Below, piece by piece: positions 32,176 through 48,600 of a stretch of DNA of 64,000 bases (its first letter is position 1; the number at the start of each line of letters is the position of its first letter). The position numbers and the translations under genes were made by a program. A model generated the notes under the pieces. The model saw only the letters and a list, made by a program, of their open reading frames with translations. It did not search any database and had not been told where the DNA came from. This stretch comes from a virus (lineage: Duplodnaviria > Caudoviricetes): positions 96,001 to 160,000 of IMG/VR virus record IMGVR_UViG_3300015050_001523. One strand, given 5' to 3'.

Positions 32176-32531
32176 TGAAAGTTCGCAAACCTAAAACCGA
32201 AGCTGAAGATATGGCAATGTCTGCGCGGGCTCTGGATTTTCTTATTGAAAAAGAAAACAATTGGATTCCTATCGACGCTCCCAAGACACGAATGGATAAA
32301 GTCCATTGTCAGCATATCCATATTGACAATGGCGGAATCTCAATGTCGGTTGAGGATACTGGGAAGAGCATCAATTTTGAAATATCTGCCCAATATTTTG
32401 GATATCCGGCAATTTCGGCTTCTATGAACATTCAGGACCACGCAATCGAATTTGTTTCTGCGCTGAGGAAGCTAGCAGATTCCGTTGAAAAAGACATCGA
32501 AAATATCAATTGGCAGGAACGATACGAATAA
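32175..32531 (+). CDS. Hypothetical protein
   Basis: Stop/start overlap with the previous ORF. Confidence 0.65.
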   Translation: MKVRKPKTEAEDMAMSARALDFLIEKENNWIPIDAPKTRMDKVHCQHIHIDNGGISMSVEDTGKSINFEISAQYFGYPAISASMNIQDHAIEFVSALRKLADSVEKDIENINWQERYE

Positions 32532-32641
32532 AGAAAAGGATGCCATTTGGCATCCTTTTTGCATGGCCAATTTTTATTAATTAATAATTTAACGATATGC
32601 AAAAAAGATGCCAAGCTTGGCATCTTTCAATGTTACCAGAG

Positions 32642-32770
32642 TCAGTCTCGCCTGGATGGCACGGCCGGCCATTGGCAGGCACACTTGGCAGTTCCACAGC
32701 TCGAAGGGATCCAAATGTTCCCGCACCACGGACAGCGCGGGAAGGTCTTGGTCTTGGTCTTGGTTTCCAT
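32642..32770 (-). CDS. 42-aa Cys-rich micro-protein (not in the ORF track), leaderless
   Basis: METKTKTKTFPRCPWCGNIWIPSSCGTAKCACQWPAVPSRRD; TTGCGT-N16-TATGCT-N6-ATG. Confidence 0.65.
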   Translation of the reverse strand: METKTKTKTFPRCPWCGNIWIPSSCGTAKCACQWPAVPSRRD

Positions 32771-32907
32771 AAACTAAGCATAACGTATTCTGGCGAGAAC
32801 GCAACCCAGTTCAGTGATTTATTTTTGGCATTCTTTATGCATGCTTAAAATTTATTAATTAATTAAAAAAGAACATTAAAAGAAAAGGCGCATTATGCGC
32901 CTTTTGG

Positions 32908-33453
32908 TTATCGGGCCGTCATTTCTCCGAGCCAAAGCTTGGCATCCTTACTGTCTCGAAAGATAACAAAGCTGGCATCAATAACAAACCATCCAATATA
33001 ATTTAGATCTTTCATTCGTGGTTCTTCCTTATGGCGCAAGGCTGGCCGATCGTTATGTTGGTCTTCAACCAGCATGACTGCCATATCAAACTTTTCTTCG
33101 GGGCCAACAAACCAACCAAAGCTGCTATCTCCAACTTTGATTTCCTTAAAGGACAGAGCCTTGACAGCATGCAAAGCTCGCATTTCTCGCAAGGCGCTCG
33201 GCAAAGCTCCAAATTCAAACTCGGCCGAGCCCATATAATCGAAAGAGAAGTATTGGTCAACACCTTTACTTTGGCCTACAGAATGCTTCTTCGCACAAAT
33301 CCGCTGTACCAAATAAGTCGCCCGAGAAGGATAATTAATCTTCTCCCAATCAAGGCGCTGCTGACGCTGTGACTTTGTGGACTTTGTTTGCGAATCAGGT
33401 TGCGGCTTGGTCCAAGTGTTCGCAGAATTCATCAGTGACTTTAGGCTGGCCAT
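32908..33453 (-). CDS. Cassette ORF, leaderless
   Basis: TTGCAT-N16-TATCCT-N7-ATG; FSFDYMGSAEFEFGALP motif. Confidence 0.75.
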   Translation of the reverse strand: MASLKSLMNSANTWTKPQPDSQTKSTKSQRQQRLDWEKINYPSRATYLVQRICAKKHSVGQSKGVDQYFSFDYMGSAEFEFGALPSALREMRALHAVKALSFKEIKVGDSSFGWFVGPEEKFDMAVMLVEDQHNDRPALRHKEEPRMKDLNYIGWFVIDASFVIFRDSKDAKLWLGEMTAR

Positions 33454-33457
33454 GATT

Positions 33458-33548
33458 AAAAGGATAGCCTATCCGAATCAGGATGCAAGGCCAAAAATAA
33501 ATTTATTTTGATGTTGCGCGAGCGACCTTTATGGACCATCCTATAATC
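33458..33548. promoter_or_regulatory. Compact divergent promoter pair around palindrome AAAATAAATTTATTTT
   Basis: Palindrome at 33494-33509 with TTGC(A/G) -35 boxes pointing outward. Confidence 0.75.
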
Positions 33549-33953
33549 ATGGAAACCGAAGCCGCCGCTATCACTCTCAAGCCCGAGCCCACCAATAGCA
33601 AAGAAGAGCTTTTGCTGGCAAAGATTCCGATGCCTGACAGCGCCAATCAAAAGGAAGGCACGCGAAATGAATTGGAGATAAAGGTTCGGTATATCAAGGA
33701 TGGAATGGGAAGGCTCGGCGGCCGAGGCTTTTTCCTAACCATTCATGGATATGCGGTTGAAGGTCTATTTAAAACCTTTATGCTTTGTCAGGACCCTTCG
33801 GAGTATATCTTTGTCGAGCCCTGTCAGCGATTTGGCGCAAAGGCCATGAATCAGGCCGCTTCCCGCGCTTGCGGAGAAGAATTTCGCGCTAAGATCGAAA
33901 AAGAGGTTGTCAAGGCACAAAAGTATTATCTTGGAAAGACTTTTCCAATGTAA
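33549..33953 (+). CDS. Cassette ORF, leaderless
   Basis: TTGCGC-N17-CATCCT-N6-ATG. Confidence 0.7.
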   Translation: METEAAAITLKPEPTNSKEELLLAKIPMPDSANQKEGTRNELEIKVRYIKDGMGRLGGRGFFLTIHGYAVEGLFKTFMLCQDPSEYIFVEPCQRFGAKAMNQAASRACGEEFRAKIEKEVVKAQKYYLGKTFPM

Positions 33954-34111
33954 ATCAAAAGGCGCATAAAGCGCCTTTCTTTTTAAATGTTCTTTTTTAT
34001 TAATTAATAACAAGCCTTATGCATTAGCCATGCCAAGCGCCTTTGGCGCGGCATGAAATTAAAGATCGGTTTGAGGTTGCATCTTCGGAAAAATGCTTCA
34101 TGCTAAAAGAG

Positions 34112-34348
34112 ATGAAAGACAAGCCTCTTTATCCAGGAAATGTTTATGACAACCCGATTAAGGGGTATAACACCCTTTATGATGAGGTAAATATTGTGAT
34201 TAGGGAACTTGAGCGCCTTCGCAAGTTTGCTCATGATGATTCTCTCAAAAATGAACATGCACTTCACCGAGAAAATGCTTTAGGCCGAACTTGTGCCTAC
34301 GAAACTGCCAAATCATTGCTTAGTGATATCTTTGTTCGTCTTGAATGA
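34112..34348 (+). CDS. Cassette ORF, leaderless
   Basis: TTGCAT-N16-CATGCT-N7-ATG. Confidence 0.65.
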   Translation: MKDKPLYPGNVYDNPIKGYNTLYDEVNIVIRELERLRKFAHDDSLKNEHALHRENALGRTCAYETAKSLLSDIFVRLE

Positions 34349-34529
34349 AACGATCCACTAAAAAGGCGCATAAAGCGCCTTTCTTTTAAATGTTCTTTTT
34401 TATTAATTAATAAATTAAGCCCATGCAAAAAGGATGCCAATGCGCCAAAGGCGCGGCATGAAATTAAAATCGATTTGGCCTTGCATCTTAGCTGGAATGC
34501 ATTATCATCAGAAGAGGAGCTAAAGAAAA

Positions 34530-34781
34530 ATGTCACGCACTACTCGAACGGTTCCAGGACATATGATTGATCGCGGCAGTTTGACAATTACTCCTGCCAT
34601 GCAAGATTATTTGGTGAAGGTTCAGCGAGGCCAGGCTCGGGCTGTAAGCACCGTTGTTTGCGAGCATGGCTGGCCCGAGCATATTTCCGGTTCAGACCGC
34701 AAGCGAATCAAGCGCTTTGTGGCGAAGGTTCGCCGCCGTCAGGCTCGGCAAGATATCCGAGATTCTTTTATGCTTGGCTGA
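34530..34781 (+). CDS. Cassette ORF, basic
   Basis: Downstream of a full element; GAGGAG SD. Confidence 0.7.
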   Translation: MSRTTRTVPGHMIDRGSLTITPAMQDYLVKVQRGQARAVSTVVCEHGWPEHISGSDRKRIKRFVAKVRRRQARQDIRDSFMLG

Positions 34782-34792
34782 GTCACCGCTAT

Positions 34793-35107
34793 ATGAATAA
34801 TCTCTCCGACCAAACCGCTTGCATCCATCCCAATCTCGCATCGCTTATTGCTGAGGAATTTACCCAATTTGGCTTTGTGCGAGTTAACCTCACAAACGGC
34901 TACGTGATCGAAATCGAACTTTACGATAGCGGTAACACCGCCGTGGTGGTCCGCGCGCCCGTAACGGAGCGATCCCCCTATGGAGGTTGCGATCTTATTT
35001 ACCAAACCAAGACTAAGCCCGCATCGGTTGCGATTGATGCGATGATGGCGCGGATCGTTGAATGGATGCGTCCGAAGACCGAGCCTGCTGACCTTGCACC
35101 ATTCTGA
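34793..35107 (+). CDS. Cassette ORF
   Basis: Second gene of the cassette. Confidence 0.6.
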   Translation: MNNLSDQTACIHPNLASLIAEEFTQFGFVRVNLTNGYVIEIELYDSGNTAVVVRAPVTERSPYGGCDLIYQTKTKPASVAIDAMMARIVEWMRPKTEPADLAPF

Positions 35108-35220
35108 GAATCGAGGATGCCAGATTAAATCTGGCATCCTTTTTGCATTCTGGTTTAATTATTAATTAATAACTTTCTTTAAAATAAAAAGAGCGCAATA
35201 AATGCTGCGCTCTTTTTCCA

Positions 35221-35490
35221 TTAATAAAGTGTAAAGTTTTGGGCTGGACTTGGGCTTAGTCCGTTTAAAACGCATGCTCCAATTGCAGCAACCAAAGTAG
35301 AGGCATTATTCGTATTAAATTCGTATCCAACATATCGCTTTCCTTTGTGCATCCTGGTTTTATCCGAGCCTCCCCAAATGCAAAGTTTGTTCAAGTCTGT
35401 GCGAAGCTCGGGAGCCGAATCTTCACAAACAAAGATCCGATGTCCATAATAGGTTCCGCCAAGAACGACCACAAACTTTGGATTCTCCAT
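35221..35490 (-). CDS. Cassette ORF, leaderless
   Basis: TTGCTT-N16-TAGACT-N6-ATG. Confidence 0.65.
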   Translation of the reverse strand: MENPKFVVVLGGTYYGHRIFVCEDSAPELRTDLNKLCIWGGSDKTRMHKGKRYVGYEFNTNNASTLVAAIGACVLNGLSPSPAQNFTLY

Positions 35491-35568
35491 ATATAGAGTC
35501 TAATTCATGCTGAGCCAAAAGCAAGAAAGAAATCCTAAAAAAAAAGGCGCCTAAAGCGCCTTTCCTCG

Positions 35569-35766
35569 TTATTGAAGGTTAGCTAGAAATTTAGAGATCC
35601 TTTCACGAACCCATGGGTTTTCTGGGTCGTGCTCAATCGAGCCGCTTGCGGAGCTTTGGAAGGTGCTCGTGATTGCAAGAGGCGAGCCATAATGGCCCGT
35701 GCATCCGCGAAACATGCGAGCATCAATAACATCTGCCATGGTCATTTGAATAGAATTATTATTCAT
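35569..35766 (-). CDS. Cassette ORF
   Basis: Ends at terminator hairpin GGCGCCTAAAGCGCC. Confidence 0.55.
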   Translation of the reverse strand: MNNNSIQMTMADVIDARMFRGCTGHYGSPLAITSTFQSSASGSIEHDPENPWVRERISKFLANLQ

Positions 35767-35772
35767 GATCTA

Positions 35773-36003
35773 TCATCCTTGCCAATTGCGCGGACGTGGA
35801 ACCGGCGGATCGTGCGGGTGTGGCTGGGCTTGAATAACAACCACTTCTGGCAAGAACCAGGACAAGTGTCCCGATGCCATGTTATAGCCAGCCAACCTTC
35901 CGCGCTCGTCGTAACGTGTTAGTCGCTTGTGTTTGGCACCGCTCCAAAACATATCTCCGTCTACAAGCTCGGACAGTGGAACTTTGATTGGGTCAGTCAC
36001 CAT
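35773..36003 (-). CDS. Cassette ORF
   Basis: Downstream of a minus-oriented element. Confidence 0.6.
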   Translation of the reverse strand: MVTDPIKVPLSELVDGDMFWSGAKHKRLTRYDERGRLAGYNMASGHLSWFLPEVVVIQAQPHPHDPPVPRPRNWQG

Positions 36004-36137
36004 CTAATAATGCCAGAAGAAAGACAGGATGCAAGCAGACTTAATGATTTATTTTTTGCCGTGCCAAGGCACGGCTCATGCATGATGCTTGTTATTAATT
36101 AAGATTTTAATGCTAAATGCGCCAAAGGCGCTTCTTT

Positions 36138-36323
36138 TCAGTCGGACTTGCGCTTTGTGTCGGCCGCAATTTGAATCGCTCGTGCCGCAGCCGTAATTGC
36201 TGACAAGACGGCCGGCAACTGAGTAACTGCGAGAAAGCTCAGATCGCTGGCGAGCTTGCCGTATTTGCGAGCAGCATCCGCGATCTCCTTTTGAGTTTCG
36301 TTGTTGAGTATTGGATCAGCCAT
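36138..36323 (-). CDS. Cassette ORF, leaderless
   Basis: TTGCAT-N16-CATTAT-N6-ATG. Confidence 0.65.
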   Translation of the reverse strand: MADPILNNETQKEIADAARKYGKLASDLSFLAVTQLPAVLSAITAAARAIQIAADTKRKSD

Positions 36324-36484
36324 AAGCTAATAATGCCAGAAGAAAGACAAGATGCAAGTACCTTCTGTCTATATTTATTTATTCCGCGCCTTTGGCGCTT
36401 GGCATCCTTTATGCATGAAAGTTTTTATTAATTAATTAATAACGGAACCTTAAATGAAAAAGGCGCTTTATGCGCCTTTTCAAA

Positions 36485-36937
36485 TTATTCGCACTTATTA
36501 TTGGAATCGATTGACGTCCAACAGCCAGAGTGTGGACCGACTTCGCCGATTTCCTCGTCAAGCATCAAAGCATAAACGGGAAAAAAGATAGAACCTCCAC
36601 CATGACTGTTAAAGTAAGGGAACCTCGCATCAATCGCTGTGCAGAGCGGCATGGTAATTGCACGATACAGAATCTCGGAATCAGAAGGTGCAATTTCCTT
36701 TCCATCATAATCGATAATGGAGGCAACAACCATCTTTCCAAGAGAGTCAACAATCGACTTGTAAGAATTGTCGACAATTTCGACCTTGATTCCTTCGGCG
36801 CTCAATTCCGCATGGATCTTCAAAGCCTTTTCGAAGGTATGATATTCTCCCTCAAAAACTCGCCTTCCGCTTCCATTACCAGGAACGCTAGGAACGAAAG
36901 AGAGGACAGCAAACGGAGCATTGATTGGCTGGCTCAT
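36485..36937 (-). CDS. Cassette ORF, leaderless (true start MSQPIN)
   Basis: TTGCTC-N16-TATCTT-N7-ATG. Confidence 0.7.
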   Translation of the reverse strand: MSQPINAPFAVLSFVPSVPGNGSGRRVFEGEYHTFEKALKIHAELSAEGIKVEIVDNSYKSIVDSLGKMVVASIIDYDGKEIAPSDSEILYRAITMPLCTAIDARFPYFNSHGGGSIFFPVYALMLDEEIGEVGPHSGCWTSIDSNNKCE

Positions 36938-37033
36938 CCCTAACAAGATAGCATCCTCCAATGAGCGAGCAACGATTAAAATAAATTTATTTTCGTTCTT
37001 GACTCTCTCGGATTCTCGGCCAGACTTATAATC
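36938..37033. promoter_or_regulatory. Compact divergent promoter pair around palindrome AAAATAAATTTATTTT
   Basis: Palindrome at 36978-36993; same design as 33494. Confidence 0.75.
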
Positions 37034-37321
37034 ATGACCCGCCAGATCGCCATCGCTGAAGCTGCTCGGCCTTTCTATGTTGTGGAGGTTGCGCCGACCT
37101 ACCATCCTGTTACAGATGGAATTACTGGTTACCGCGAATACCGCGAAAGCGAAGCAAGCTACGAAACCTTTGGTGGCGCTAGCTGGCGCGTTGGAATGCT
37201 GGATCGGCGATATGGCGGGGATGTCTGGTATGCGATTCGTGATGCGCTTGGGCGTAGTGTTTACTTCCCGCGAGTCGAGCCCGAGCAGGCACCTTGCGAG
37301 GATGGCGATATTCCGTTCTAA
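37034..37321 (+). CDS. Cassette ORF, leaderless
   Basis: TTGACT-N16-CAGACT-N7-ATG. Confidence 0.65.
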   Translation: MTRQIAIAEAARPFYVVEVAPTYHPVTDGITGYREYRESEASYETFGGASWRVGMLDRRYGGDVWYAIRDALGRSVYFPRVEPEQAPCEDGDIPF

Positions 37322-37357
37322 GCTTGCATCCCATCATTTTCGAGGTATAACTCTCTC

Positions 37358-37792
37358 ATGGAAACCGCCGAGTCTTTTATTTCCAAGTTGAATCTTTCTT
37401 TTACTGAAAGCTTCCCTAACGGATTCATTTCGACTCAGATTCACCGGTCACTTTGCAAGGCTGATGCCTTTAAAATTTATGTTGTTTTTACGATTCTTCC
37501 GCTTGGAGCGCAAACAAACGGAATCGTTGAAAACGATCCGAGCCTGAACAAATTTTTCATTTACATCGGCGAAAATCTTGAATCTTTGCCGGAATCGATC
37601 CAAACTGATCTATTCCAAGGAAATAGGCTTTACAGCCCAAAGGGACCGCAAGCGGGCAGCGAAAAGCTGGGCTGGCGCAATGGCAAGGCATCGGCCGAAA
37701 AGATCCTAAAAAAGTTTGATCTTTTCTTTAAGAAGGTTCGGGCGATGGTCGATGCCAATGGTGGAATTGAGGCTTATCAAAAGAGCGCATAA
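37358..37792 (+). CDS. Cassette ORF, leaderless
   Basis: TTGCAT-N16-TATAAC-N6-ATG. Confidence 0.7.
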   Translation: METAESFISKLNLSFTESFPNGFISTQIHRSLCKADAFKIYVVFTILPLGAQTNGIVENDPSLNKFFIYIGENLESLPESIQTDLFQGNRLYSPKGPQAGSEKLGWRNGKASAEKILKKFDLFFKKVRAMVDANGGIEAYQKSA

Positions 37793-37935
37793 CGCGCTCT
37801 TTTTCTTTTTAAGATCATGGCTTATTAATTAACAAGAAAAGCCATGCAGGAAGCATGCCAAGCGCCAAAGGCGCTGCATAAAATAAACCGTCAAAGTCCG
37901 CTTGCATCTTGGCTTCTATGAGGTATCATTACATC

Positions 37936-38199
37936 ATGCGAAATCGAAACTTTCTTCTTCCTTTGGTGCTTTGCTTTGGCTTTCTTATTGGCTGCACCGT
38001 GCCCAGCGATCGGGCTATGCACGTGCTAAAGGGAGCCGGTTATACTGAGGTCAACCTCGGTGATCATGCGTGGTATAGCTGCGGAAAGGATGATACCCTC
38101 GCAACTGAGTTTGTGGCCAAAGGTCCAAATGGCCAGCGTGTTCAGGGTGCGGTTTGTTGCGGTGTTTGGGGCAAGAGCTGCACCGTTCGGCTTGACTAG
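37936..38199 (+). CDS. Conserved phage lipoprotein, leaderless
   Basis: FLIGC lipobox; GYT..WYSCGKDD..F.AKGPNGQRVQGAVCCG; TATCAT-N6-ATG. Confidence 0.75.
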   Translation: MRNRNFLLPLVLCFGFLIGCTVPSDRAMHVLKGAGYTEVNLGDHAWYSCGKDDTLATEFVAKGPNGQRVQGAVCCGVWGKSCTVRLD

Positions 38200-38203
38200 A
38201 TTT

Positions 38204-38299
38204 ATGACGACCGCGATCGGTATGCCTCTAACAATTCTAGTATGCTTATTCTCTGGAATAGCCGTTTCGCTGCTCCTAAACAAGAAACGAAGGAGCTAA
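38204..38299 (+). CDS. 31-aa single-TM micro-protein
   Basis: MTTAIGMPLTILVCLFSGIAVSLLLNKKRRS. Confidence 0.5.
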   Translation: MTTAIGMPLTILVCLFSGIAVSLLLNKKRRS

Positions 38300-38459
38300 A
38301 CCTAAAGGCGCATTACGCGCCTTTTCTTCTTTGCCAAAAACATTTATTAATTAATAAAAATTCTTCATGCACAAGGCATGCCAAGGCGCCAAAGGCGCGG
38401 CATGAAATTAAAGATCGATTTGAGGTTGCATCTTGATTTGGATAGGTTATCCTTGGAGT

Positions 38460-38705
38460 ATGGGAAAGACGCAACGAAACCGGAAGCAGCAGTCCAAGGG
38501 CCAAGAAATGACCCGAGCCGCCGCCCGAGCATACATGGTTCGAAACCTCAAGGATTACACCGATCGAATCAGCGGCGATGTCAATCTGACCCGCCTCGCC
38601 GAGTCATGTTGTCAAGCTTTCAATTGTAACCATGATGGTGGTCCCCTCGATCAAGAGGATCATTGGATTTGGGATGTTACCGCGGATTTCTCAAATATCC
38701 GGTAA
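38460..38705 (+). CDS. Cassette ORF, leaderless
   Basis: TTGCAT-N16-TATCCT-N6-ATG. Confidence 0.7.
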   Translation: MGKTQRNRKQQSKGQEMTRAAARAYMVRNLKDYTDRISGDVNLTRLAESCCQAFNCNHDGGPLDQEDHWIWDVTADFSNIR

Positions 38706-38712
38706 AACCCAT

Positions 38713-38943
38713 ATGACCACAATCCTAATGTTTTTCGTGGGAATCGTTGTTGGCACAATGATTGGCTGGATTCTTGGCTGGAGCCTCATTGTTATTTGTA
38801 GCTATCCTTTGGAATGGCTCCGAAGGCGCAAGCGACTCAAGGAATTTGAGCGCGAGGAGCGCGAAAAAGAAAATGATTTGATCCTCAACTTGGATCCTCA
38901 ACTTCTAACCGAGCTAATTCAAGCATTCCGAAACCAAAAGTAA
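38713..38943 (+). CDS. Small membrane protein
   Basis: N-terminal TM segment then charged tail. Confidence 0.6.
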   Translation: MTTILMFFVGIVVGTMIGWILGWSLIVICSYPLEWLRRRKRLKEFEREEREKENDLILNLDPQLLTELIQAFRNQK

Positions 38944-39058
38944 AAAAATCAAACGAAAAAATGGCGAATTTTCGCCATTTTTTGCTTAAGGTATCAGGTT
39001 ATTAATTAATTAATCTTAAGAATGCAAAAAATGTTCCAAAGGATTTCCTTTGGAACAT

Positions 39059-39160
39059 TGCACCAAATAGGATTTGAACCTATATCCCTCCAGACAACGC
39101 TGGTAGCACTTAATTCTTGCAAAAATCAGTGCAGTGCTTTACCCATTAAGCTATTGGTGC
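39059..39160 (-). ncRNA. Atypical 102-nt tRNA (8-nt anticodon loop and 33-nt extra arm, or tRNA-Ile(GAT) with ~30-nt insertion)
   Basis: GCACCAA/TTGGTGC acceptor, GCTT-AATGGGTA-AAGC D arm and ATAGG-TTCAAAT-CCTAT T arm are all canonical. Confidence 0.75.
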
Positions 39161-39163
39161 GAT

Positions 39164-39298
39164 TTAAATTGCCCAGTCCCAAAAAGAACTTGACAAAAGA
39201 TAAAGCGCGAAAAGGCACATTCCAAAAACAGCGCAGGTTGCAACAACCATTGTCCAAGTAATAATGTCTGAAATGAGCATTTGGGTGGAGACCTTCAT
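39164..39298 (-). CDS. 44-aa membrane peptide, leaderless, co-transcribed with the atypical tRNA
   Basis: MKVSTQMLISDIITWTMVVATCAVFGMCLFALYLLSSSFWDWAI; TTGCGC-N16-CATCAT-N7-ATG. Confidence 0.6.
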   Translation of the reverse strand: MKVSTQMLISDIITWTMVVATCAVFGMCLFALYLLSSSFWDWAI

Positions 39299-39374
39299 AT
39301 GCTTAATGATGGCAGAAAAAATCAGAAGCGCAAGCCATTTTTTCGTTTGATTTTTTGGCAAAAATTTAAATAAA

Positions 39375-39399
39375 AAAGGGAGCCCGACCGGCTCCCTTT
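39375..39399 (-). terminator. Rho-independent terminator
   Basis: AAAGGGAGCC-GGTCG-GGCTCCCTTTTTT on the minus strand. Confidence 0.8.
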
Positions 39400-39900
39400 C
39401 TCGCATGTCTTTCCAGGCTGTCAAGCATGCCAAGATTTGATCAAAACTAGATTGTTCATGCTGAAACTTTCTAGCCTTTAGCTTGTCTTTCCAAGCTGTC
39501 AAGCATGCCAAGATTTGATCAAAACTAGATTGTTCATGCTGAAACTTTCTAGCCTTTAGCTTGTCTTTCCAAGCTGTCAAGCATACCAAGATTTGATCAA
39601 AACTAGATTGTTAATGCTGAAACTTTCTAGCCTTTAGCTTGTCTTTCCAAGCTGTCAAGCATATCTTTTTAAGATCCAGGTGCTATTATGCCGGATAGCC
39701 GCCTTTAAGACTGTTATTCCAAGTTAATCCCGACCAAGTGTGCAAAACAGCCAAAAAGTTTGGTCGAATGCTTGTCTTTCCAAGCTGTCAACCCTTAGAC
39801 TTGCGTCACAGGCTTTAAGAAGCTGTCCGCCGACTTTTCGGCGGAGCTAAGAGTTAGTTTTATCTGGACCATTCCAGTCGAGCCATTGGCTCTAATACAC
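39400..39900 (-). ncRNA. Candidate large structured RNA
   Basis: ORF-poor; serial hairpins (GAGCC-AAT-GGCTC, CTGGA-ATGG-TCCAG, CCGCCGA-AAAG-TCGGCGG, five GGAAAGAC hairpins); terminator at the 3' end. Confidence 0.55.
39406..39663. repeat. 78-bp tandem repeat, 3.3 copies, plus an extra core at 39770-39790
   Basis: Units start at 39406, 39484, 39562 and 39640; the minus-strand core GACAGCTTGGAAAGACAAGC forms hairpin GCTTG-GAAAGA-CAAGC. Confidence 0.95.
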
Positions 39901-40012
39901 TTTTTTTCAGAAATTTTTGTTAGGGGTTGAAAGCGACTTATCGCTTCGGAGGAGCCCGCGCAGTGTTATTAGATTTGTTCATTTTTGTCCTTTCAGACAG
40001 AAGATGGCTGAA

Positions 40013-40087
40013 TCAGACAGAAGAGAAGATGGCCGAAGGAACCGTAATCAAGAAAACAAAGGTAAAAACGATGAAAGCGGTCGTCAT
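40013..40087 (-). CDS. 24-aa hydrophobic micro-ORF
   Basis: MTTAFIVFTFVFLITVPSAIFSSV downstream of a minus promoter at about 40134-40161. Confidence 0.4.
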   Translation of the reverse strand: MTTAFIVFTFVFLITVPSAIFSSV

Positions 40088-40126
40088 TTTGGTTTCTTTC
40101 TGGCGGGAGAAGTTCTCCGCTGCCGA

Positions 40127-40315
40127 CCCTCAAAGTATGAGGCATTCTGCCGAGGATGCAAGCCGCCTTTGACGATTTAATTTGCGGCGACAAAGGCGCC
40201 TTGGCATGGTTCATGCATGGCTTAATTTATTAATTAAGAACATTGCGTCAAAGGCGCAAAAAATTTAAGATCGATTTGGGCTTGCATCTTACCTTGGCCA
40301 TGGTATCCTGAAGTC
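40127..40315. promoter_or_regulatory. Bidirectional cassette element (two promoters sharing one palindrome)
   Basis: TTGCAT-N16-CATACT (minus) and TTGCAT-N16-TATCCT (plus) either side of TTATTAATTAAG. Confidence 0.8.
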
Positions 40316-40711
40316 ATGGCACTAACCAAAGCTGTCGCTGGTCTTGCTCGCGTGATGGGTCTCCAATCCTCGCGCTTGGCGCTCCCAAACGAAAAGGGAG
40401 ACGCAGAAGTTGCGCGATGCAAGAAATGCGCGAGCTACATTCTGAGCGAGAATCGCCATGACTTTGTGACTTGTTTTTGTGGCGCAGTTTCGATTGATGG
40501 TGGCCGAGACTACACGCGAATTACTGGAAATGACGAGGATTATGAACTTTTGTCGGTTGTGTTCGGATACGATACGGAGGAACAACTAAAACAAAAAATC
40601 CTAATTCTTTCCGCGCGATTAATGCCAAAAATTAATACAGAATTATATGGGCTCTTGCTCGAATTGATGCAAGCCGAAATTGAGCTAGATCGGGTTCGCG
40701 CTAGGCACTAA
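40316..40711 (+). CDS. Zn-binding phage protein (CxxC..RHDFVTCxCG..DGG family), leaderless
   Basis: RCKKC..SENRHDFVTCFCGAVSIDGGRDYTR. Confidence 0.75.
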   Translation: MALTKAVAGLARVMGLQSSRLALPNEKGDAEVARCKKCASYILSENRHDFVTCFCGAVSIDGGRDYTRITGNDEDYELLSVVFGYDTEEQLKQKILILSARLMPKINTELYGLLLELMQAEIELDRVRARH

Positions 40712-40896
40712 ACAAACCAAACATTCCTTAAGAGCGCCTTGTGCGCCCTTTTCTTCTTGAGTTATTAATTAATAACAATTATCATGCATTAAGGATGCCA
40801 AGGCGCCTTTGGCGCGGCATAAAATAAATCGACCGAAGGCTTGCATCTTCTCTAGACTCTGATAAGATAAACCTGACTCCAAAAAGGAACCCAACC

Positions 40897-41043
40897 ATGC
40901 AAAAGTTCATCATCGCCTCCATCATCGCTTTTTCTCTCTTTCTTTCTGGTTGCGATCTCGCCGAGCAGGGTTACACTTGCGACGACGCTGGTCAGCTTAT
41001 CGAGCCGACCGGAAAGCCGACCGGCCTGCCCTGTCCTTTCTGA
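40897..41043 (+). CDS. 48-aa lipoprotein (not in the ORF track)
   Basis: MQKFIIASIIAFSLFLSGCDLAEQGYTCDDAGQLIEPTGKPTGLPCPF; AAGGA SD; sole payload of its cassette. Confidence 0.75.
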   Translation: MQKFIIASIIAFSLFLSGCDLAEQGYTCDDAGQLIEPTGKPTGLPCPF

Positions 41044-41221
41044 GAGGAAAGACACAACTTTGGAAAAGGGCGCTTTATGCGCCCTTTGTTTTTTAAAGTT
41101 TTCGACTTATTAATTAATAAAACTTATTATGCATGAAGGATGCCAAGCGCCAAAGGCGCGGCATAAAATAAATCGTCAAAGATGGGTTGCGTCTTATGTA
41201 AATCCACACTAATATGAAGTC

Positions 41222-41536
41222 ATGTCCAGTCCATTTCTTGTCGATGTCAAGCGGTATCTCCTCCATTTGATTGCAACTGACATTGTTACTGGATTACCAT
41301 TTGGAGGTGGTTTTCCGAAATCGCTAATGATGCAACTGCTTCCGTGGTCAAACTTGCAAGCTGATTTCATTGAAGCAATGCGCGGCAAAACTTGCGGCGT
41401 GGGAGAGGCTACTGATACAGACCCCGATGGTGAATGTGTGTACTACATGGATAATGTCGTCGACTGGCTCCAAAGCGACGAAACCGAACAAGTCTCTCCC
41501 TATGTTAAAAGCCTCTCAAAACTCAAGGACATGTAA
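41222..41536 (+). CDS. Cassette ORF, leaderless
   Basis: TTGCGT-N17-TAATAT-N6-ATG. Confidence 0.7.
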   Translation: MSSPFLVDVKRYLLHLIATDIVTGLPFGGGFPKSLMMQLLPWSNLQADFIEAMRGKTCGVGEATDTDPDGECVYYMDNVVDWLQSDETEQVSPYVKSLSKLKDM

Positions 41537-41712
41537 AAAATCCAGCCGCATCTAAAGGGGCATAAAGCCCCTTTTTTCTTTAAGTTTCCTAAATTATTAA
41601 TTAATAAAAATCCTTCATGCATAGTCCATGCCAAAGCGCCAAAGGCGCTTCATAAAATAAATCGTCAATGCGGCTTGCATAACTCTTTGATTGGTTTATG
41701 CTTCGGATTGCA

Positions 41713-42057
41713 ATGCTTCTCACTTTCGAAGAAAAGCTCATCGGGATTTCTCTCATGCAAGCGGGATGCTCGGCTTCCTCGGCTTCCGTTCAAATGAATG
41801 CATATTCAGGAGGCCAGTACACACTGGAAAAGATGCGCGATCTTTTCAAGTCCTTGGAAGAGGCCAAGAAAACTCACAAGGCGATTGGCGGCGTATTGAT
41901 CGAACTTCAAAACCCAGAAGCCACGGTAGAAGATCGCGTGTTTTTTCTGTATTCCATGGACAATCGAAGCGTGCAAGTAACAAAAGCGTTTCTGAACACC
42001 TGCTTGCCAGAATGGGCGATCCAGCTCGAAAAGATCATGGATTCGTGGGATTTCTAA
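41713..42057 (+). CDS. Cassette ORF
   Basis: TTGCAT-N16-TATGCT-N10-ATG. Confidence 0.7.
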   Translation: MLLTFEEKLIGISLMQAGCSASSASVQMNAYSGGQYTLEKMRDLFKSLEEAKKTHKAIGGVLIELQNPEATVEDRVFFLYSMDNRSVQVTKAFLNTCLPEWAIQLEKIMDSWDF

Positions 42058-42234
42058 CAAGTCACACGTTCAAAAAGGGCGCACAAAGCGCCCTTTTTCT
42101 TTTTTAAGTTCCTGAGTTTATTAATTAATAAAGCTTATTATTCATGAATCGTGCCAAAGCGCCAAAGGCGCATGATAAAATAAATCGTCAAAGATGGCTT
42201 GCGCCCCTCGCCAATCCAAGCTAAGGTTAATCCG

Positions 42235-42678
42235 ATGGCAAATTTCAAAACCCTCCTCGCTGCTTCCCTCGTTCGCAATTCGCGCAAGGAACAGGCCCAG
42301 GAATGGCAGCAATCCATCGCGCTTGCCGCGCAAAGCGAAGATAACTTCGAGCGCGAGGTTGAAGTCCGAACCCGTGCGATTTGTGAGCATGATTTCTGCG
42401 CGAGTTTCACCAGCCTCGTGGAAAGCGAGGTTCACAGCGCGCTTCTCGCGCAGGTCAAGGAACTTTCGATTTGCGCGGCATGCGCAGAGTATGAAAGTCG
42501 GCATTGTTCGGATTGTCGCGGATATGGCTTCACTTCATGGGAGAATCGTTCGACTCGGGCCATGCTTGCCGATCCGCATACTGTGAACAAAATCGATGAA
42601 TCCATCCGAGCCGAGCTTGAAAGCCGCTTGGGAAAAGGAGCTTGGGAGGATATGATGGAATGCATGAATGATGCATAA
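42235..42678 (+). CDS. Cassette ORF with CxxC motifs, leaderless
   Basis: TTGCGC-N17-TAAGGT-N7-ATG; CAAC..CSDCRG. Confidence 0.7.
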   Translation: MANFKTLLAASLVRNSRKEQAQEWQQSIALAAQSEDNFEREVEVRTRAICEHDFCASFTSLVESEVHSALLAQVKELSICAACAEYESRHCSDCRGYGFTSWENRSTRAMLADPHTVNKIDESIRAELESRLGKGAWEDMMECMNDA

Positions 42679-42851
42679 CAAATCAAACATTCCCAAGGGC
42701 GCATAAGGCGCCCTTTTTCTTTTTAGACTTCCAATTTATTAATTAATAAATTTGAATATGCATGAAGGATGCCAAGGCGCCAAAGGCGCGGCATAAATAA
42801 AAAATAAATCGTTGCTTGACTTCGGCCGAGACTCGATTAGAATGATCTTCG

Positions 42852-43043
42852 ATGGAAACCGTCCGCTTCACCTTCACCGCTACCGCCATCGGCTCGACTC
42901 ACGAGATCACGATTGTCGTTCCGATTGAAGATGATCCAGAGCTTGCTTACTCGGAACTTGCGGACAACGCGCAAGAGCAAGCTGAGCAGATCGCGCGCGA
43001 GCGACTCGGAGTCGAGGATGTCGAGGTTCTGCTGCGCAGCTAG
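42852..43043 (+). CDS. Small acidic cassette ORF
   Basis: TTGACT-N16-TAGAAT-N8-ATG. Confidence 0.7.
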   Translation: METVRFTFTATAIGSTHEITIVVPIEDDPELAYSELADNAQEQAEQIARERLGVEDVEVLLRS

Positions 43044-43222
43044 CGCCGCTCTCTTCGGATCCTTAAGGGCGCTTGAAGCGCCCTTTTCTTTTTAAGTTTC
43101 CTGAGCTATTAATTAATAAAGTTTACTATGCATAAAGGATGCCAAAGCGCCAAAGGCGCGGCATAAAATAAATCGACCGAGGTTGCTTGCATCTTCTCAA
43201 TCATGATTTATAGTTCCTTTGC

Positions 43223-43579
43223 ATGGCGACCCAAATGGTTCCGACCCTCTCGATCTTCTCTATGCCTGAGAACGTCTATTGGCAGGCGAACGAATTGCGC
43301 AATTCGGACAATCCGCATCGATACTCTGCGTGCAATTATTTCACGCATGGTAGCGTATACTTCCAAAAAGGCCATTGGCTGAGCGAAGACATGTGGATCG
43401 TCGAAATCGATGGCGAGGAGATCGCTACCTTTAAGCTTCGATTCTTGACCGAGGCGGTTGCTTTTATGTCGGTCCAAGTCGACAAGGATGGTGATCGTGA
43501 TGCGATGGTGAATGCTATGCAAAGCACGCAAAGTGACTATGAGGAGGATTGGGATTATGAAGAGGAGTTTCGTGAATAA
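43223..43579 (+). CDS. Acidic cassette ORF
   Basis: TTGCAT-N16-TATAGT-N8-ATG. Confidence 0.7.
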   Translation: MATQMVPTLSIFSMPENVYWQANELRNSDNPHRYSACNYFTHGSVYFQKGHWLSEDMWIVEIDGEEIATFKLRFLTEAVAFMSVQVDKDGDRDAMVNAMQSTQSDYEEDWDYEEEFRE

Positions 43580-44024
43580 ACAGGATAAAATCAAACATTC
43601 CTTAAGGGCGCTTTGTGCGCCCTTTTTGCTTTAAGTTTCCTAAATTATTAATTAATAACCCCTAGCCATACACCTTCTATGCCAACGTCTTTATTTTGTT
43701 GCACATTATTCGCAGCATAAGCTGGCTTCCTAGAAGCTTCCAGAAGGCGGCGAGGACTCGGCCGGTACCCTCGCCGCCCGACAGGCCGAAAACGGCTCAG
43801 CAAGGCGCATAACAATGTTTCCTTTGATGCTAGCATCTGGCCGGCGCTGCCCAAAAACGGAGGAGAAGATCGAACCCTAGCCTCCACCCCCCTCCAAAAA
43901 ATGGCCCAAATCTTGCTTAAATTCTGGGCGTTAATTAATTAAAATTCTCTATGCAAAAAATGGACCAAAGTTAAATAAAAAAGGGCGCTTTATGCGCCCT
44001 AACAAAATGAAAGCTTTGGGAGGA

Positions 44025-44408
44025 TTAAATGAAATAATCGCTTTCGTACCAAAGATCATGGTCAAAGGTATCAAAACCCATAACCTCGTTGAAGGCGTGA
44101 GCGCCTCCTATCATTCCTGCATGAACTGCCATTTCATCCAAGCATGCACGCTCGAATTGCGCAGCTTCATGCGCCTTTTGCGCATTCATTTGCGCAATTT
44201 CTGCGTCAGTTTTGACGCGGCGAGAAACTCCCAAATCTGGGATCTCAAGCCAAGCTGTCCAAACCAACATTTTATTTAGAGGTTTTGAATCGTGAGGATT
44301 GTGAAAAAACTCCAAAGCCTCAGCTTCCGTTTCGAACGAAACGCTAGAATGACAATCATCGTTACCATTGGCAGGATTGGAACCCCAGAAAAAAACTTCG
44401 ATAGCCAT
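44025..44408 (-). CDS. Cassette ORF
   Basis: TTGCCT-N17-TATAAA-N8-ATG; ends at a terminator hairpin. Confidence 0.7.
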   Translation of the reverse strand: MAIEVFFWGSNPANGNDDCHSSVSFETEAEALEFFHNPHDSKPLNKMLVWTAWLEIPDLGVSRRVKTDAEIAQMNAQKAHEAAQFERACLDEMAVHAGMIGGAHAFNEVMGFDTFDHDLWYESDYFI

Positions 44409-44620
44409 CGCACAAATTTATAGCAAAGGACATGCTCCAAGGCAAGCCAACTTAAAGATTTATTTTTTGGCATCATTTATGCATGAGCCAAATTTATTAA
44501 TTAATGAATTTCTCGATGCAAAAAATAGGCCGAAACATTAAAATAAAAAGGGCGCATAAAGCGCCCTTCAAAAGCTATTAATAAAAAATGGCGCGGATCT
44601 TGCAACCCGCGCCATTGGCG

Positions 44621-45586
44621 CTAACCGAGCACCGCTTCGATTTTCTCGACCGCGAACTTCACGCGATCGTTACCCTTCGCGTCGAAATGATTGCGCTCGT
44701 CGGACAAAACCCACAAAACATAATCAACCATCGATTTGTTAGCATGGATCTTCGAGGGATGCGGGATTCGCGCGATGTCGGCGCGAAGGTCGCGCATCAA
44801 CCGATTGAGCCGATCAAACGCGGTCTCGGCGCGCTCGGGATCCGGCGCAGCCTGGCCATCATGCGCACGGAGCGCTTCATCGGTCACGTTGAGGATCTCG
44901 CGGTAAATGCGCCCAAGCATGCCGGGGTTGTTGCAGTGGCGGTGATCGCGCCCTTCGGTCCAAGTGCCAAGGCGCCCAACGCGCTTCACAGTGTGACCCT
45001 TGCGCTGGTCGCGCGTCTTCGAGCTGACGCCGGGAGCGCAGATCCGAATCTGATCCGAGCCGAGCGGCCGAACGGCGCCGCCAACGCGCTTGCCGTTGGC
45101 GCTCTTGCCGCCAACAATCGAAGTGAAGACCGAGACCACGATCGGCATGCCGCGCGAGTCGCGCCCAACCTCACGAACCCAGATCTCCTCACCGGGAGTC
45201 AGCGGAGATCCCGCGGTCTCGCTGGCGAACGCGAACCCCGCAATGAGCAGAACATCGCGGATCGCGCCAGCGAGCATTTCGCGCGATTGCGTGCTATGCG
45301 GATCGTACTTGGTTTCCGCGGTGTACGCGGTATGCGGGGTTTGCGCCCACGTCTGCGACTCTCGCGCAGCATCGGCCGCGGCTTGCGCAGCCGCACGCAA
45401 ATCTTGCTCCGGGTTCTCAGCGCGCAGTTCCCGCGAAGCTTGCGCGAGGAGCGCATCGTAATCCAGACCATGCTCGGCGCAGATCTTGCACGCGTTAAGT
45501 CGCGCGTTAAGCGCTTCGGTCGAGCTAGTCGCGGGATGCGCAACGATCTTAAGGAGCTTTACCACTTTGGAGGAGAAGTTCGACAT
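44621..45586 (-). CDS. DUF2786-like N-terminal domain protein (321 aa, GC-rich)
   Basis: KVVKLLKIVAHPATSSTEALNARLNACKICAEHGLD resembles the DUF2786 KxxKLL..EAxxA..A..LMAKYGI helix pair. Confidence 0.6.
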   Translation of the reverse strand: MSNFSSKVVKLLKIVAHPATSSTEALNARLNACKICAEHGLDYDALLAQASRELRAENPEQDLRAAAQAAADAARESQTWAQTPHTAYTAETKYDPHSTQSREMLAGAIRDVLLIAGFAFASETAGSPLTPGEEIWVREVGRDSRGMPIVVSVFTSIVGGKSANGKRVGGAVRPLGSDQIRICAPGVSSKTRDQRKGHTVKRVGRLGTWTEGRDHRHCNNPGMLGRIYREILNVTDEALRAHDGQAAPDPERAETAFDRLNRLMRDLRADIARIPHPSKIHANKSMVDYVLWVLSDERNHFDAKGNDRVKFAVEKIEAVLG

Positions 45587-45649
45587 GGTAGCTTTGTCGC
45601 TTTCGGCACCGGTCAGCGGCGCATCGGGAAAAAATCAGGATCGATTTGA

Positions 45650-48600
45650 TTATGGTCCGAGATCAAGATTAAGCAAGCGATACGCAAAGAAAAAAATCCA
45701 CCTAATTAAATCAATCACTTACACTTGGCACCAATCTTGCCGATCAGAATTCCTAACATAAGCGATTTTTTAACTTTCTTTTAACTAATATTCCTATGGA
45801 TCGAATCTTGCAAAGGATCTTCCTTGGATCAGATCTTGCATAAAAAGCACGTTATTAATTAATAGCTCAGGCATATGCATAAAAGATGCCAGCGCAAGGT
45901 TTGCGCTCCAAAGCAAGCCAAAATCATTGAACATTTAAGGCATAGGGCTGGGACGTCGTATAAGGCTCATGGCGAGGCGATCGCCAAAACAAGGGAGAGG
46001 TTAGGGGTCACCCTTAAAAACCCGTCTCCGTCAATCCTCGCGCGTCGAGCCTAGAACCGCTGCTAGTCGCCGATCCAAGCCCGAAACCGCCAAAATCCCT
46101 TAAATCCGCAAGCCGCGCACAAGAAAAGATAAGGAAAGGTGAGCAAACCTCATGAAATGTAATTAAAGGTAAAGAGATGGAATCAATCATAAACAAACCT
46201 CCCACCATGTAAGTAAAGGTCATGACGTCTGGGATAATGTCATGACATATAAGTGAATTGGATCAAAGATAATAAAATATAACCAAACATAATGAAAGGT
46301 AGGCAAACATCGGGAAAGGTAATAAGAGGTAGCCTAAGATAATCCAAGGAAATGAAAGGTAGGCAAATGTCATGAGACTTGGGGAAACCTAAGAGAAGTA
46401 AACACGCGCCGCATAACCTATACAAAAAACTTATATTGAAGGGAAATAAAATCAAATATCCCTCATGTATGACACCATCCCAGCTTGTAAACCGTTGCAG
46501 CATTTACTGTAACAGCATTCATTGATTCAATAAACACTGAAACATCTTAACCGTCTCACTCGCAACCGTTACAGTAAACGCTGTCACAGTGTTCGCTGAA
46601 ACACTAATCAATGTCTCAATAAAAATGTTTCAGTAAACAATGACATAATAACATAACTAACCCTTATCCCATCCTTGCCTACATATAAGCTTTCCTCATG
46701 ACATTTCCTTACCCCTTTTTGTGAACTAGCTTACATATCGTTTCATGCGTTGCAACATCACTTGAAACACTCCGCGCATGATTCGCAAACATCGTTCCAG
46801 CATGGCTAAACATCATGCTAGACCCCCATATCCCTCAGGTTTGGCGTGAAACATGGGGGCAATGGTCCTATCGCCCCCCATCCTATCGCCTCGCAGAATC
46901 CATCCTGGCGCGCGACAGCCTATGAAGGTTTCTTGCCTACATATAAACTTTCCATAAACTAACTCTCCCATAATAAATCTAACCTTCCTATAACCAACTA
47001 TTTCCTAACTCTATACAAATTATATGCCATCAAATTCCTAACTTTCCTTAACCCTTTCATAATTCCTTCTATATCTTCCGTTCCTTCCTCTCCTATTACC
47101 ATTTAAAGCTAATAATAATCAGATAACCCATTTCCCTTATGGATCAATGGCCCAATTACCATTTCAAACATTCCTGCCATATCTAATATGTTTGTTTTGC
47201 TATATTTGGCCAAATAACTGCTTAAACTATTATAAATAGTAAAGCTTACTTTACTATCTCCTTAGTTTTTCAAAATATTGAATATTAATTATATCATTAT
47301 TTTTTGAATTGTTGGGATTGTCTAAAACGATAGCTATGTTCGATTAGGGAGCTTTTTGACATATTAGCCGCTATAAATAACGATCAGTTTCTTGCATATT
47401 TCATGCCAGTTAAAAGGCTACCATTCCTCAAAAACCTATTATGCCGAATCATTCATATTTAATGATCCTAACTCCACGAATTCAAACATTTCGCATTAAT
47501 TAATAACCCCTTATTTCATTATTTCCAGAATATCAAAGAAAGCTAGCAAAACAAAAGGATGGAAAAAGCTAACAAAAGCGATATTTCCAAGAAAGCTAAA
47601 ATGCCGAATCATTCATATTTAATGATCCTAGCTATTCGAATTCGAAGTTTTGATAGTTATGTTTGGATTGGTAGAAATATAAGGAAAGTTAGAAATGGGA
47701 GTTATTAATTAAGAAGGTAAAGGCATGCACAAGGCATGCCAACCACAAAAGTTAGGAATGATAGATTAGGAAGGAAAGTTAGGAAGGAAAGTTAGGAATG
47801 AGAGAAAGAGGAGGAGAACCCAGCCAAATCAAACCTCCTATTCCTACCTAACCTTATATCTCTTATGCTAGATATATGGGATATGTCTGGGTTGATAGGT
47901 TATGCTCGCCCATCCTTAATTAACAATCCTTCTCTATGCAATCCCTATGCCATGTCTCCATGTTCGATATGTTAGCTTTGTTCCAAAAGCTCTTAATTAA
48001 CAAATCCGATTCATGCAACCCTTATGCCAATAGCTTTGATACTAATGTTAGGAATGGGAGCCTTATATCCCTTCAGCTTTGTTAGGTTATGCTTTGGCAT
48101 GAAGTATGCAAGATGTTAGGTTTGGTAGGCTAACATTGTTCTAAATTTAGTTATAGGAATGGATGCTATGTTGGGATTGTTAGGATTGATAGGTAAATTT
48201 TAAATAGCTTTGGCAGCTTTGATGCTTTCGCGCCAAGGCCGCCATGTTCGGTTTGTTATTAATGTTTGATATGGGAGGATTGGGTATATTAGTTTTCTTC
48301 GATATGTTAGCTTCGCCGGGTTTGCGCTCGGGCCGCATAGCTCCTATTCCTCCCGGTAGGATACCCGCCTACATCACCCCCCTTTAGACCCCCCCTGTTT
48401 ACCCCCCCTTACACCCCCCTACCATGCGTCACTAATCGCCCCCTTATGGACCTGCTCTAAGAGCCCTCGCAAAAATTTTCTAAATTTTTAACATTTTTAA
48501 ATGATTACATTTTTCCGAAAATGTAATCAAAAAATATTTGATATATGGGTCGAAAAAATTTTTGGGGAAAATTTTTGAAAATTAGGAATTTATAGATGTT
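45650..48600. other. ~3-kb non-coding repeat-rich region (candidate terminus, terminal-repeat junction or origin)
   Basis: No credible ORF; repeated AAAGGTAGGCAAA, GGAAAGTTAGGAA, TTGCCTACATATAA, a 30-bp direct repeat at 47441/47601, degenerate TTAATTAA..ATGCA..ATGCCA sites, alternating purine/pyrimidine skew. Confidence 0.75.
48377..48419 (-). other. Four-tract G-quadruplex motif (C6-N6-C7-N6-C7-N5-C6 on plus)
   Basis: C-runs at 48377-82, 48389-95, 48402-08 and 48414-19. Confidence 0.7.

Follow-up and report, generated by a model that had tools for sequence, protein, structure and literature searches.

The 64,000-nt window analysed here, bases 96001-160000 of a 322,518-base IMG/VR virus record (estimated completeness 93%), holds on its minus strand at 39372..40127 a non-coding transcription unit of ~750 nt, in which a small hairpin, GACAG-CTTG-GAAAGA-CAAGC (the GACAG hairpin), is present in several copies. 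Both strands of window 28000-46000 carry an array of ~20 short self-contained gene cassettes, and on its sequence the unit is a gene-less cassette, built to make an RNA of ~750 nt. The cassette promoter at 40132..40161 (-), as read from the sequence, comprises a -35 hexamer TTGCAT (40161-40156) and a -10 element CATACT/TACTTT (~40139-40132), and its position puts the predicted transcription start near 40127; the architecture, TTGCAT-N16-18-TAnnnT with an AAATCG box upstream, is common to the unit and more than ten sister cassettes. At the other end, an intrinsic terminator (39372..39396, -) with a GGGAGCC/GGCTCCC stem (39396-39378) and a T6 run (39377-39372) closes the minimum-free-energy fold of the unit, which as a whole folds better than its own shuffles (z = -3.5). 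No ATG is found within 45 nt of the cassette promoter, unlike in the sister cassettes, more than ten of which have the ATG only 6-8 nt past the -10 hexamer, so that their mRNAs are probably leaderless. The unit contains micro-ORFs only, and across it no open reading frame (ORF) matched a Pfam family above noise. One micro-ORF at 40003-40077 (-), ~50 nt into the unit, would encode a 24-aa hydrophobic peptide, MTTAFIVFTFVFLITVPSAIFSSV, lacks a Shine-Dalgarno sequence and is followed by a 14-aa ORF. A first-pass annotation of this DNA had drawn the same minus-strand unit, from a +1 at about 40127 to the terminator and with micro-ORFs only, and the promoter and terminator are indeed present in the sequence. 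Parts of the locus occur in DNA and RNA sequencing runs from freshwater and estuary metagenomes; in an RNA-library (metatranscriptome) run, two identical contigs of 151 nt fall wholly within the unit (39720-39870 and 39967-40117). The sequencing-run contigs, only 151 nt long and without ends or strand, are at most a weak hint of transcription, and stretches without cover are uninformative.

Five matches of the pattern GACAGCNNGGAAAGACNNGC were found in the window, all on the minus strand, while shuffles led to an expectation of 0.00. Written as GACAGC-NN-GGAAAGAC-NN-GC, four of them read GACAGCTTGGAAAGACAAGC, and the fifth is degenerate. The solitary copy (39770..39789, -) has its own following hairpin, CGACCAA...TTGGTCG, and 133 nt start-to-start separate it from the first of three tandem copies at 39637..39656, 39559..39578 and 39481..39500 (all -, by pattern match); the degenerate copy GACAGCCTGGAAAGACATGC at 39403..39422 (-) carries two substitutions, one of which breaks a pair, and abuts the terminator. 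Tandem Repeats Finder assigned 39406..39662 (-) to 3.3 units of a repeat with a period of 78 bp and 98% matches, each unit being composed of the GACAG hairpin, a 36-nt second hairpin (9+4 bp) and a linker; the array of this two-hairpin module makes up the 3' half of the RNA. The five copies, their distribution over a 78-bp tandem repeat (four) and a site 133 bp away (one), and the tandem amplification of the 3' hairpin module had all been noticed at first pass, and they hold up with the single correction that one copy is degenerate. Between units 2 and 3 there is no difference, and unit 1 departs from them at two positions; the module is therefore best described, from these sequence differences, as expanded by a recent tandem duplication. 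By the same token, the exact copy number is uncertain if the record derives from a short-read assembly. Among the motif loci of this analysis the window array is the most amplified example. A 32-nt pattern derived from the second hairpin of the module gave no other match in IMG/VR, and pattern search gave no relative of a neighbouring DUF7695 protein.

The 78-bp period is a multiple of three, and a 141-aa ORF (39164..39589) stays open through 2.3 units, such that 26-aa repeats might be translated from the array. This ORF, however, starts at TTG, is confronted with an in-frame TAA in the first unit, crosses both the strong terminator and the promoter of the next cassette, and matches no Pfam family above noise; moreover, the conserved core of the repeat is a covarying hairpin (see below) found in non-coding contexts of hundreds of phages. 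A protein-coding repeat is accordingly given next to no weight.

The hairpin reaches far beyond this phage. Its full motif can be written T-GACAG-C-NN-G-GAAAGA-C-NN-G-C-A, that is, T-GACA, a 5-bp stem (G-C-N-N-G / C-N-N-G-C), the loop GAAAGA and then an A with a G-poor stretch, at least 14 positions of the 22-nt element being fixed. The exact 20-mer was found in at least 119 IMG/VR contigs, whose flanks are unrelated and have nothing in common, and at least 118 further contigs, for a total of more than 230, carry stem variants (the variant pattern excluded T at stem position 8, and hence the CTTG variant of the window). With a 22-nt pattern leaving both inner stem pairs free, at least 120 genomes proved to be carriers, distributed over Pseudomonadota, Bacteroidota, Bacillota, Spirochaetota, Cyanobacteria, Bdellovibrionota, Planctomycetota, Verrucomicrobiota and other phyla. 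In GenBank the motif lies in unannotated intergenic DNA of phages mEp390, Alexa, Pokken, GP4 and relatives, BUCT708, P7641, ESP2949-1, DIBBI and Medea1, and is also carried by phages of Planktothrix, Microcystis, Bacteroides, Rhodobacter and Bacillus; cultured carriers include mEp390 (E. coli), Alexa (Acinetobacter), Pokken (Stenotrophomonas) and GP4 (Ralstonia). Among complete E. coli genomes it is a rarity, present in 9 of 5426. Most other phages hold the motif once or twice, and direct arrays of at least two copies 100-560 nt apart are common. Variation is seen in GP4, with loops GAGAGA and longer, and in the genome of the present phage, where a compensated copy GACAGCTCGGAAAGACGAGC (CTCG/CGAG) stands 6 nt before tRNA-Thr inside a tRNA array. 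At motif loci the motif strand has an excess of the 8-mer GGAAAGAC, with 165 extra copies vs 31 on the other strand and ~44 expected, and many of these extra copies sit in variant hairpins such as GGCAG, GACGG or GACA-UGCGG...CCGCA. The base composition of the stem follows the local GC content, an indication that the motif has long been resident and was not recently transferred.

As far as databases are concerned, Rfam gave no match to the hairpin at any threshold, and matches to Proteo-phage-1, C4 and tmRNA near some copies did not overlap it. No Rfam 15 family was matched by the hairpin unit in searches of the window at gathering score, of 38800-40400 (1.6 kb) at E<=10, or of a single copy (39615-39675, 61 nt) at E<=10. 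Early on it had been suggested that a GACAG hairpin belongs to phage-borne, tRNA-associated motifs such as manA or GOLLD, and a covariance-model scan against manA, GOLLD and ROOL was proposed. What survives of this suggestion is the general character, a phage-borne RNA element associated with tRNAs (59 of 275 instances directly precede one); the family identity does not, the absence of any Rfam 15 match in the region ruling out manA, GOLLD (RF01998) and ROOL. Literature searches by sequence and by motif description found nothing either, and the hairpin is apparently uncatalogued despite its conservation in hundreds of phages. Two sets of candidates were discarded: GAGGAAAGACC(A)ATG strings in Enterobacterial prophages are mostly ribosome-binding sites with start codons, and the BLAST matches that fell within genes (Aeromonas nrdD, Proteus tail genes, Pseudomonas JBD68) are partial and due to chance.

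Several lines of evidence concern the level at which the motif acts. In a sample of 122 instances with both stem pairs free, both pairs were kept in 115 (~14% would be expected by chance), and the same sample contained 14 sense-strand G.U wobbles vs 3 A.C; a first variant scan had shown 116 of 119 paired. Along these lines, a 93-row alignment revealed 98.7% of cells paired and 58 cells changed on both sides, a level reached in none of 500 shuffles and approached by no slid register. In native contexts the hairpin is predicted to form with a probability of ~97%, leaving the conserved loop unpaired. Conservation in the flanks is confined to T at -1 (85%) and A at +21 (84%), with G depleted at +22 to +24; the position matrix revealed no conserved positions between -20 and -2, and no general structural signal for an upstream partner hairpin emerged. 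Because wobble pairs occur almost only on the sense strand, the pattern points to a motif that acts as RNA on that strand.

The same data bear on the question of whether each hairpin is, or overlaps, a promoter with its start at the A after the stem. T-GACA does resemble a -35 hexamer, C20-A21 would be a typical pyrimidine-purine start, some copies lie ~15 nt past a terminator, and downstream helices begin at +1. Yet no -10-like signal is found at the right distance in the position matrix, on which ground a sigma-70 promoter was rejected, and with a tRNA only 3-6 nt past the stem, a sigma-70 -10 element and its start site could not fit in between. Stem covariation would not be expected in a duplex promoter, and the carriers include lambdoid and P2-like temperate phages, which are not known to encode an RNA polymerase of their own. 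A search for the single-subunit polymerase family PF00940 detected nothing in this phage, with a control that was also silent, and is therefore uninformative. The motif is probably not a phage-polymerase promoter, and a promoter array is considered very improbable.

Among 275 non-redundant motif instances sorted by context, a same-strand tRNA started within 14 nt in 59, a predicted helix started at +1 to +6 in 97, an ORF started 6-60 nt away in 55, and 64 had another context; an opposite-strand tRNA was nearby in none of the 275, and the motif orientation is always that of the downstream unit. In 49 of the 59 tRNA cases a leader of 3-6 nt remains between stem and tRNA, with a spacing peak at 4-6 nt, and these leaders are A-rich, G-free and mostly U-ending, the kind of leader that RNase P prefers. 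Many tRNAs after the hairpin have inserts in the anticodon region. Units starting right past the stem include long hairpins enclosing tRNA-like T arms, and tiny hairpin-terminator RNAs also occur among the downstream units. The motif is met inside operons without a promoter of its own, ahead of an HNH endonuclease gene in GP4, at the head of a non-coding stretch before the tRNA cluster in Pokken, after the integrase gene in Alexa, and in the early-left leader after the repressor gene in four temperate phages (mEp390, BUCT708, P7641 and an E. coli prophage). When 5978 ORFs from 237 loci were clustered all against all, no family spanned more than 16 loci, the top neighbour families being terminase, S24 repressor, DUF2800, Enc34-type single-strand-binding protein and helicases.

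In Alexa the stretch directly past the GACAG hairpin (34924-35015), located between the integrase gene and the presumed attachment region, contains a hammerhead-like core CUGAnGA...GAAA...GUC as read by eye, and it matched Hammerhead_HH9 of Rfam at E = 0.019, below the gathering score; a hammerhead after the Alexa hairpin is thus possible. A degenerate second hairpin is found 200 nt beyond this stretch.

The motif borders accessory units on their 5' side, both in hyperplastic regions and at module junctions, has terminase, integrase, repressor and HNH genes beside it, and keeps the same sequence amid unrelated flanks. This placement would also be compatible with a DNA-level signal: a single-stranded DNA (ssDNA) hairpin would mark the limits of cassettes in recombination or mobility, much as attC sites or the PeSL elements of T4-type phages do, and the tandem repeat would be a by-product of that recombination. 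The window itself is a cassette array, and PeSL-mediated shuffling is documented (PMC2839356, PMC4122927). Against this, the orientation is strictly that of the downstream transcribed strand and G.U outnumbers A.C by 14 to 3 (ssDNA of the same strand would also be compatible), no recombinase recurs among the 237 clustered loci, and the agreement of stem composition with local GC indicates long residence; in addition, a 5-bp hairpin is far smaller than attC sites. Such a role is judged improbable. PeSL proper, composites of a sigma-70-like early promoter with a terminator stem-loop, are elements flanking accessory genes in hyperplastic regions (PMC2839356, PMC4122927), and the composite terminator-palindrome-promoter punctuation of the cassettes in the window fits them well. 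The GACAG hairpin, in contrast, has neither U-tract nor promoter hexamers and is conserved between unrelated phages, not within one genome only; lacking a U-tract and a -10 element, it cannot be identified as a PeSL.

The favoured reading, to which we assign a probability of roughly 40%, is that the hairpin is a protein-read punctuation or processing signal on phage transcripts, tandemly amplified in the window. The motif would act in cis, its invariant loop and 5' flank being recognized by some conserved protein (an RNA-binding factor or endoribonuclease of the host is most likely) that would mark, cut or protect the 5' boundary of the next unit, be it a tRNA, a tRNA-like or Y-like RNA, a ribozyme, a small hairpin RNA or an accessory mRNA. 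In its simplest form, an endonucleolytic cut would fall in the G-poor stretch at the stem base, and RNase P would then trim the short tRNA leaders. The window array might on this model yield several copies of a ~58-78-nt small RNA, or present 4-5 reader sites on one RNA, with slippage or unequal recombination accounting for the gain in copies. Given the host range, one would expect either a highly conserved host factor or a self-sufficient property of the RNA.

A number of observations weigh against a punctuation or processing signal. No protein partner was identified, and no protein family recurs beside the motif (16 of 237 loci at best). A host reader enzyme would have to be common to Pseudomonadota, Bacteroidota, Bacillota, Cyanobacteria and Spirochaetota, and among the widely shared endoribonucleases we know of no evidence that RNase P, RNase III or YbeY reads such a loop. 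The window hairpins themselves precede small hairpins of no assigned use, not tRNAs, and the support for transcription consists of the two 151-nt contigs from an RNA library that may contain DNA. Finally, a variant with a 7-nt loop, GACAG-CCGG-GAAAAGA-CCGG-C, located outside the window at 183572-183594 of the phage record (-) between tRNA-Tyr and tRNA-Phe, is followed by TTTT and looks like an intrinsic terminator.

The first-pass annotation had favoured a multivalent protein sponge. In such a scheme the array would sequester a protein that binds the hairpin: a regulator, a defence nuclease or a host factor for RNA processing. In its favour are four to five near-identical sites on a dedicated RNA with strong promoter and terminator, recently amplified with units differing by 0-2 nt and with a conserved loop predicted to be unpaired. 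Precedents are CsrB/RsmZ-type sponges, which employ multiple hairpins to present loop GGA to CsrA, and the pseudo-ToxI repeats expanded by phages to neutralize ToxN. GGA is indeed present in the motif, but its first G belongs to the closing pair of the stem, and CsrA is not known from several of the phyla that host the carriers. The repeats-then-terminator layout recalls type III antitoxin loci: ToxI, and pseudo-ToxI of phage PhiTE, likewise consist of a tandemly amplified small RNA module followed by a terminator, with expansion of copy number as the evolutionary step. The period in the window is 78 nt, however, vs ~36 nt, and the core hairpin is pan-phage and usually single-copy. A ToxIN-like type III locus was rejected in that, repeats and terminator notwithstanding, the next gene is the 44-aa ORF described below and not ToxN; that hydrophobic ORF without Pfam match and a tRNA are what follows here. 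The binding partner is hypothetical, and elsewhere the motif occurs in one or two copies in fixed register with the downstream unit, as expected for action in cis. In most other phages one or two copies act in cis next to a downstream unit, so that a role in processing or regulation fits better than a dedicated sponge, which we regard as a possible though doubtful explanation; multiple reader sites on one array RNA would in any case shade into the sponge idea.

Antitermination of the nut/boxB type deserves consideration as well. Here the hairpin would recruit an elongation factor to RNA polymerase and permit read-through of downstream terminators and structured RNAs. The resemblance to lambda boxB (GAAGA/GAAAA) extends to a short GC-rich 5-bp stem, which in the motif covaries, and a purine-rich GAA(A/G)A-type loop on nascent phage RNA; in the four temperate carriers mentioned above the early-left position just past the repressor gene is that of lambda nutL, and elsewhere the motif stands ahead of tRNA arrays and terminator-rich cassettes. 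Differences are nevertheless substantial. The motif loop has six bases (GAAAGA) in place of the five of the GNRA-like purine pentaloop of boxB, no boxA-like element lies upstream, where only T at -1 is conserved, and N proteins and boxB diverge quickly, in contrast to at least 14 motif positions kept fixed across phyla. Tandem copies and sites only 3-6 nt from tRNA 5' ends are foreign to lambda nut, and the window array ends at a strong terminator. No N-like partner turned up, a systematic search not having been made, and in the E. coli prophage the motif is followed by an acidic ORF, not by an arginine-rich one. We consider antitermination unlikely.

Further known systems share features with a punctuation signal of this kind. 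CRISPR repeat hairpins processed by Cas6/Csy4, and the solitary repeat units of phages, are repeated conserved small hairpins that punctuate longer transcripts; Csy4 cuts at the base of the stem, and in several families of the present motif the downstream unit begins there. In the window, by contrast, the 'spacers' are identical or differ at two positions, there is no conserved 3' handle, no cas genes were seen, and the motif is host-independent and the same across many phyla; near-identical spacers and a common motif across phyla rule out a CRISPR array or solitary repeat unit. Theta ribozymes, minimal relatives of the HDV ribozyme, adjoin the 3' ends of phage tRNAs, their own 5' end being the cleavage site (PMC10879173). 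They resemble the GACAG hairpin as small conserved RNAs in fixed register with phage tRNAs and an implied role in tRNA end formation, many carriers apparently infecting Bacteroidota. The GACAG hairpin, however, precedes the tRNA 5' end by 3-6 nt and with 22 nt is too small for a nested double pseudoknot, which takes about 45 nt or more; the wrong side of the tRNA, the 22-nt conserved part with no conserved flank and the lack of an Rfam ribozyme match exclude a theta/HDV-like ribozyme.

A more speculative version of the punctuation model, to which little credence is given, envisages a 'punctuation mark' universal among phages and recognized by machinery that all bacteria share, for example a mimic of the tRNA acceptor microhelix or perhaps of the RNase P core. 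Phages might in this way steer RNase P or other tRNA-end enzymes to their own RNAs, and the window array could be a decoy that draws off such an enzyme or a tRNA-end-targeting defence toxin. The stem is followed by ACC in 33% of GC-rich contexts, 11% of intermediate ones and 5% of AT-rich ones vs 1-2% expected, values that related families may inflate, and CC after the stem-following A reaches up to 16 times the base-composition prediction; the combination of a G:C first pair with ACC recalls a tRNA acceptor end, a likeness to be taken at low weight. In a comparison with E. coli rnpB, GACAG and GGAAAG(A/T)CCGG were found to resemble the CR-V and CR-I strands flanking helix P4 of RNase P RNA. 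As this comparison was made post hoc, the resemblance may be due to chance and is kept as a lead at low weight.

Whatever its reader, a shared covarying 22-nt element implies a common, as yet unnamed step in the making or control of phage small RNAs and moron-like genes, and the motif offers a simple sequence handle for unannotated phage non-coding RNAs. With cultured, tractable carriers the question becomes directly testable, and the window array is a natural substrate for pull-down and cleavage assays.

Two groups of loci connect the motif with other RNA candidates. In mEp390 (2230-2480) the gene annotated as mEp390_036 (81 aa) has sequence in common with a non-coding stretch (2430-2560) beside tRNA-Ile in an E. 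coli plasmid of 93.7 kb, which encodes a DNA pacase A subunit and is possibly a P1-like phage-plasmid. Both mEp390_036 and the plasmid stretch precede a GACAG-type hairpin and an ACACAAC... helix, and to judge from this arrangement the annotated 'gene' may be part of a conserved non-coding RNA. At locus L167 (527-604) and its sister loci, an Rfam Proteo-phage-1 RNA lies ~100 nt upstream of the GACAG hairpin, which is followed by a tiny hairpin-terminator RNA; Proteo-phage-1 RNA and hairpin may form one unit. These prophages also encode an S24 repressor nearby, and the repressor ORF family is present in 16 of the loci.

Downstream of the unit, the next cassette (39164..39333, -) has the promoter TTGCGC-N17-ATCATT-N6-ATG and would be leaderless. 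Its strongly hydrophobic 44-aa ORF (39298..39164, -) has no Pfam match, and the peptide resembles a small membrane toxin or a holin-like peptide. It is followed by a tRNA-Gln(UUG)-like gene (39059..39160, -) with a 30-33-nt anticodon-loop insert, recognized by the Rfam tRNA model with 56 bits and by ARAGORN in intron mode and missed by default ARAGORN, and by a terminator at ~39026-39056 (-). The insert sits at the non-canonical position 33/34 and can pair with the 5' half of the anticodon arm. In the whole 322.5-kb phage record, ARAGORN detected 37 tRNA genes.

The cassette region (window 28-46 kb) has a higher G+C content than the rest of the window, and its units follow the order terminator, palindrome, promoter, leaderless gene. 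The stereotyped separator begins with the terminator hairpin, the palindrome TTATTAATTAATAA, an ATGCAT...GGATGCCAA box and a GCGCC...GGCGC palindrome, and concludes with a AAATAAATCG box and TTGCAT-N16-TATCMT. On the opposite strand the ATGCAT...GGATGCCAA box reads TGGCAT-N5-ATGCAT, with the spacing of a sigma-54 -24/-12 promoter. A second promoter cassette without a following ATG is located at window 31271-31560 (+). Neither Rfam nor ARAGORN recognized it; it contains two tRNA T-arm-like GGTTCGAATCC hairpins, an acceptor-like GAGGAT...ATCCTC closure and a GGAAAGACCAAGGGG string, and by these features may represent a new tRNA-like RNA.

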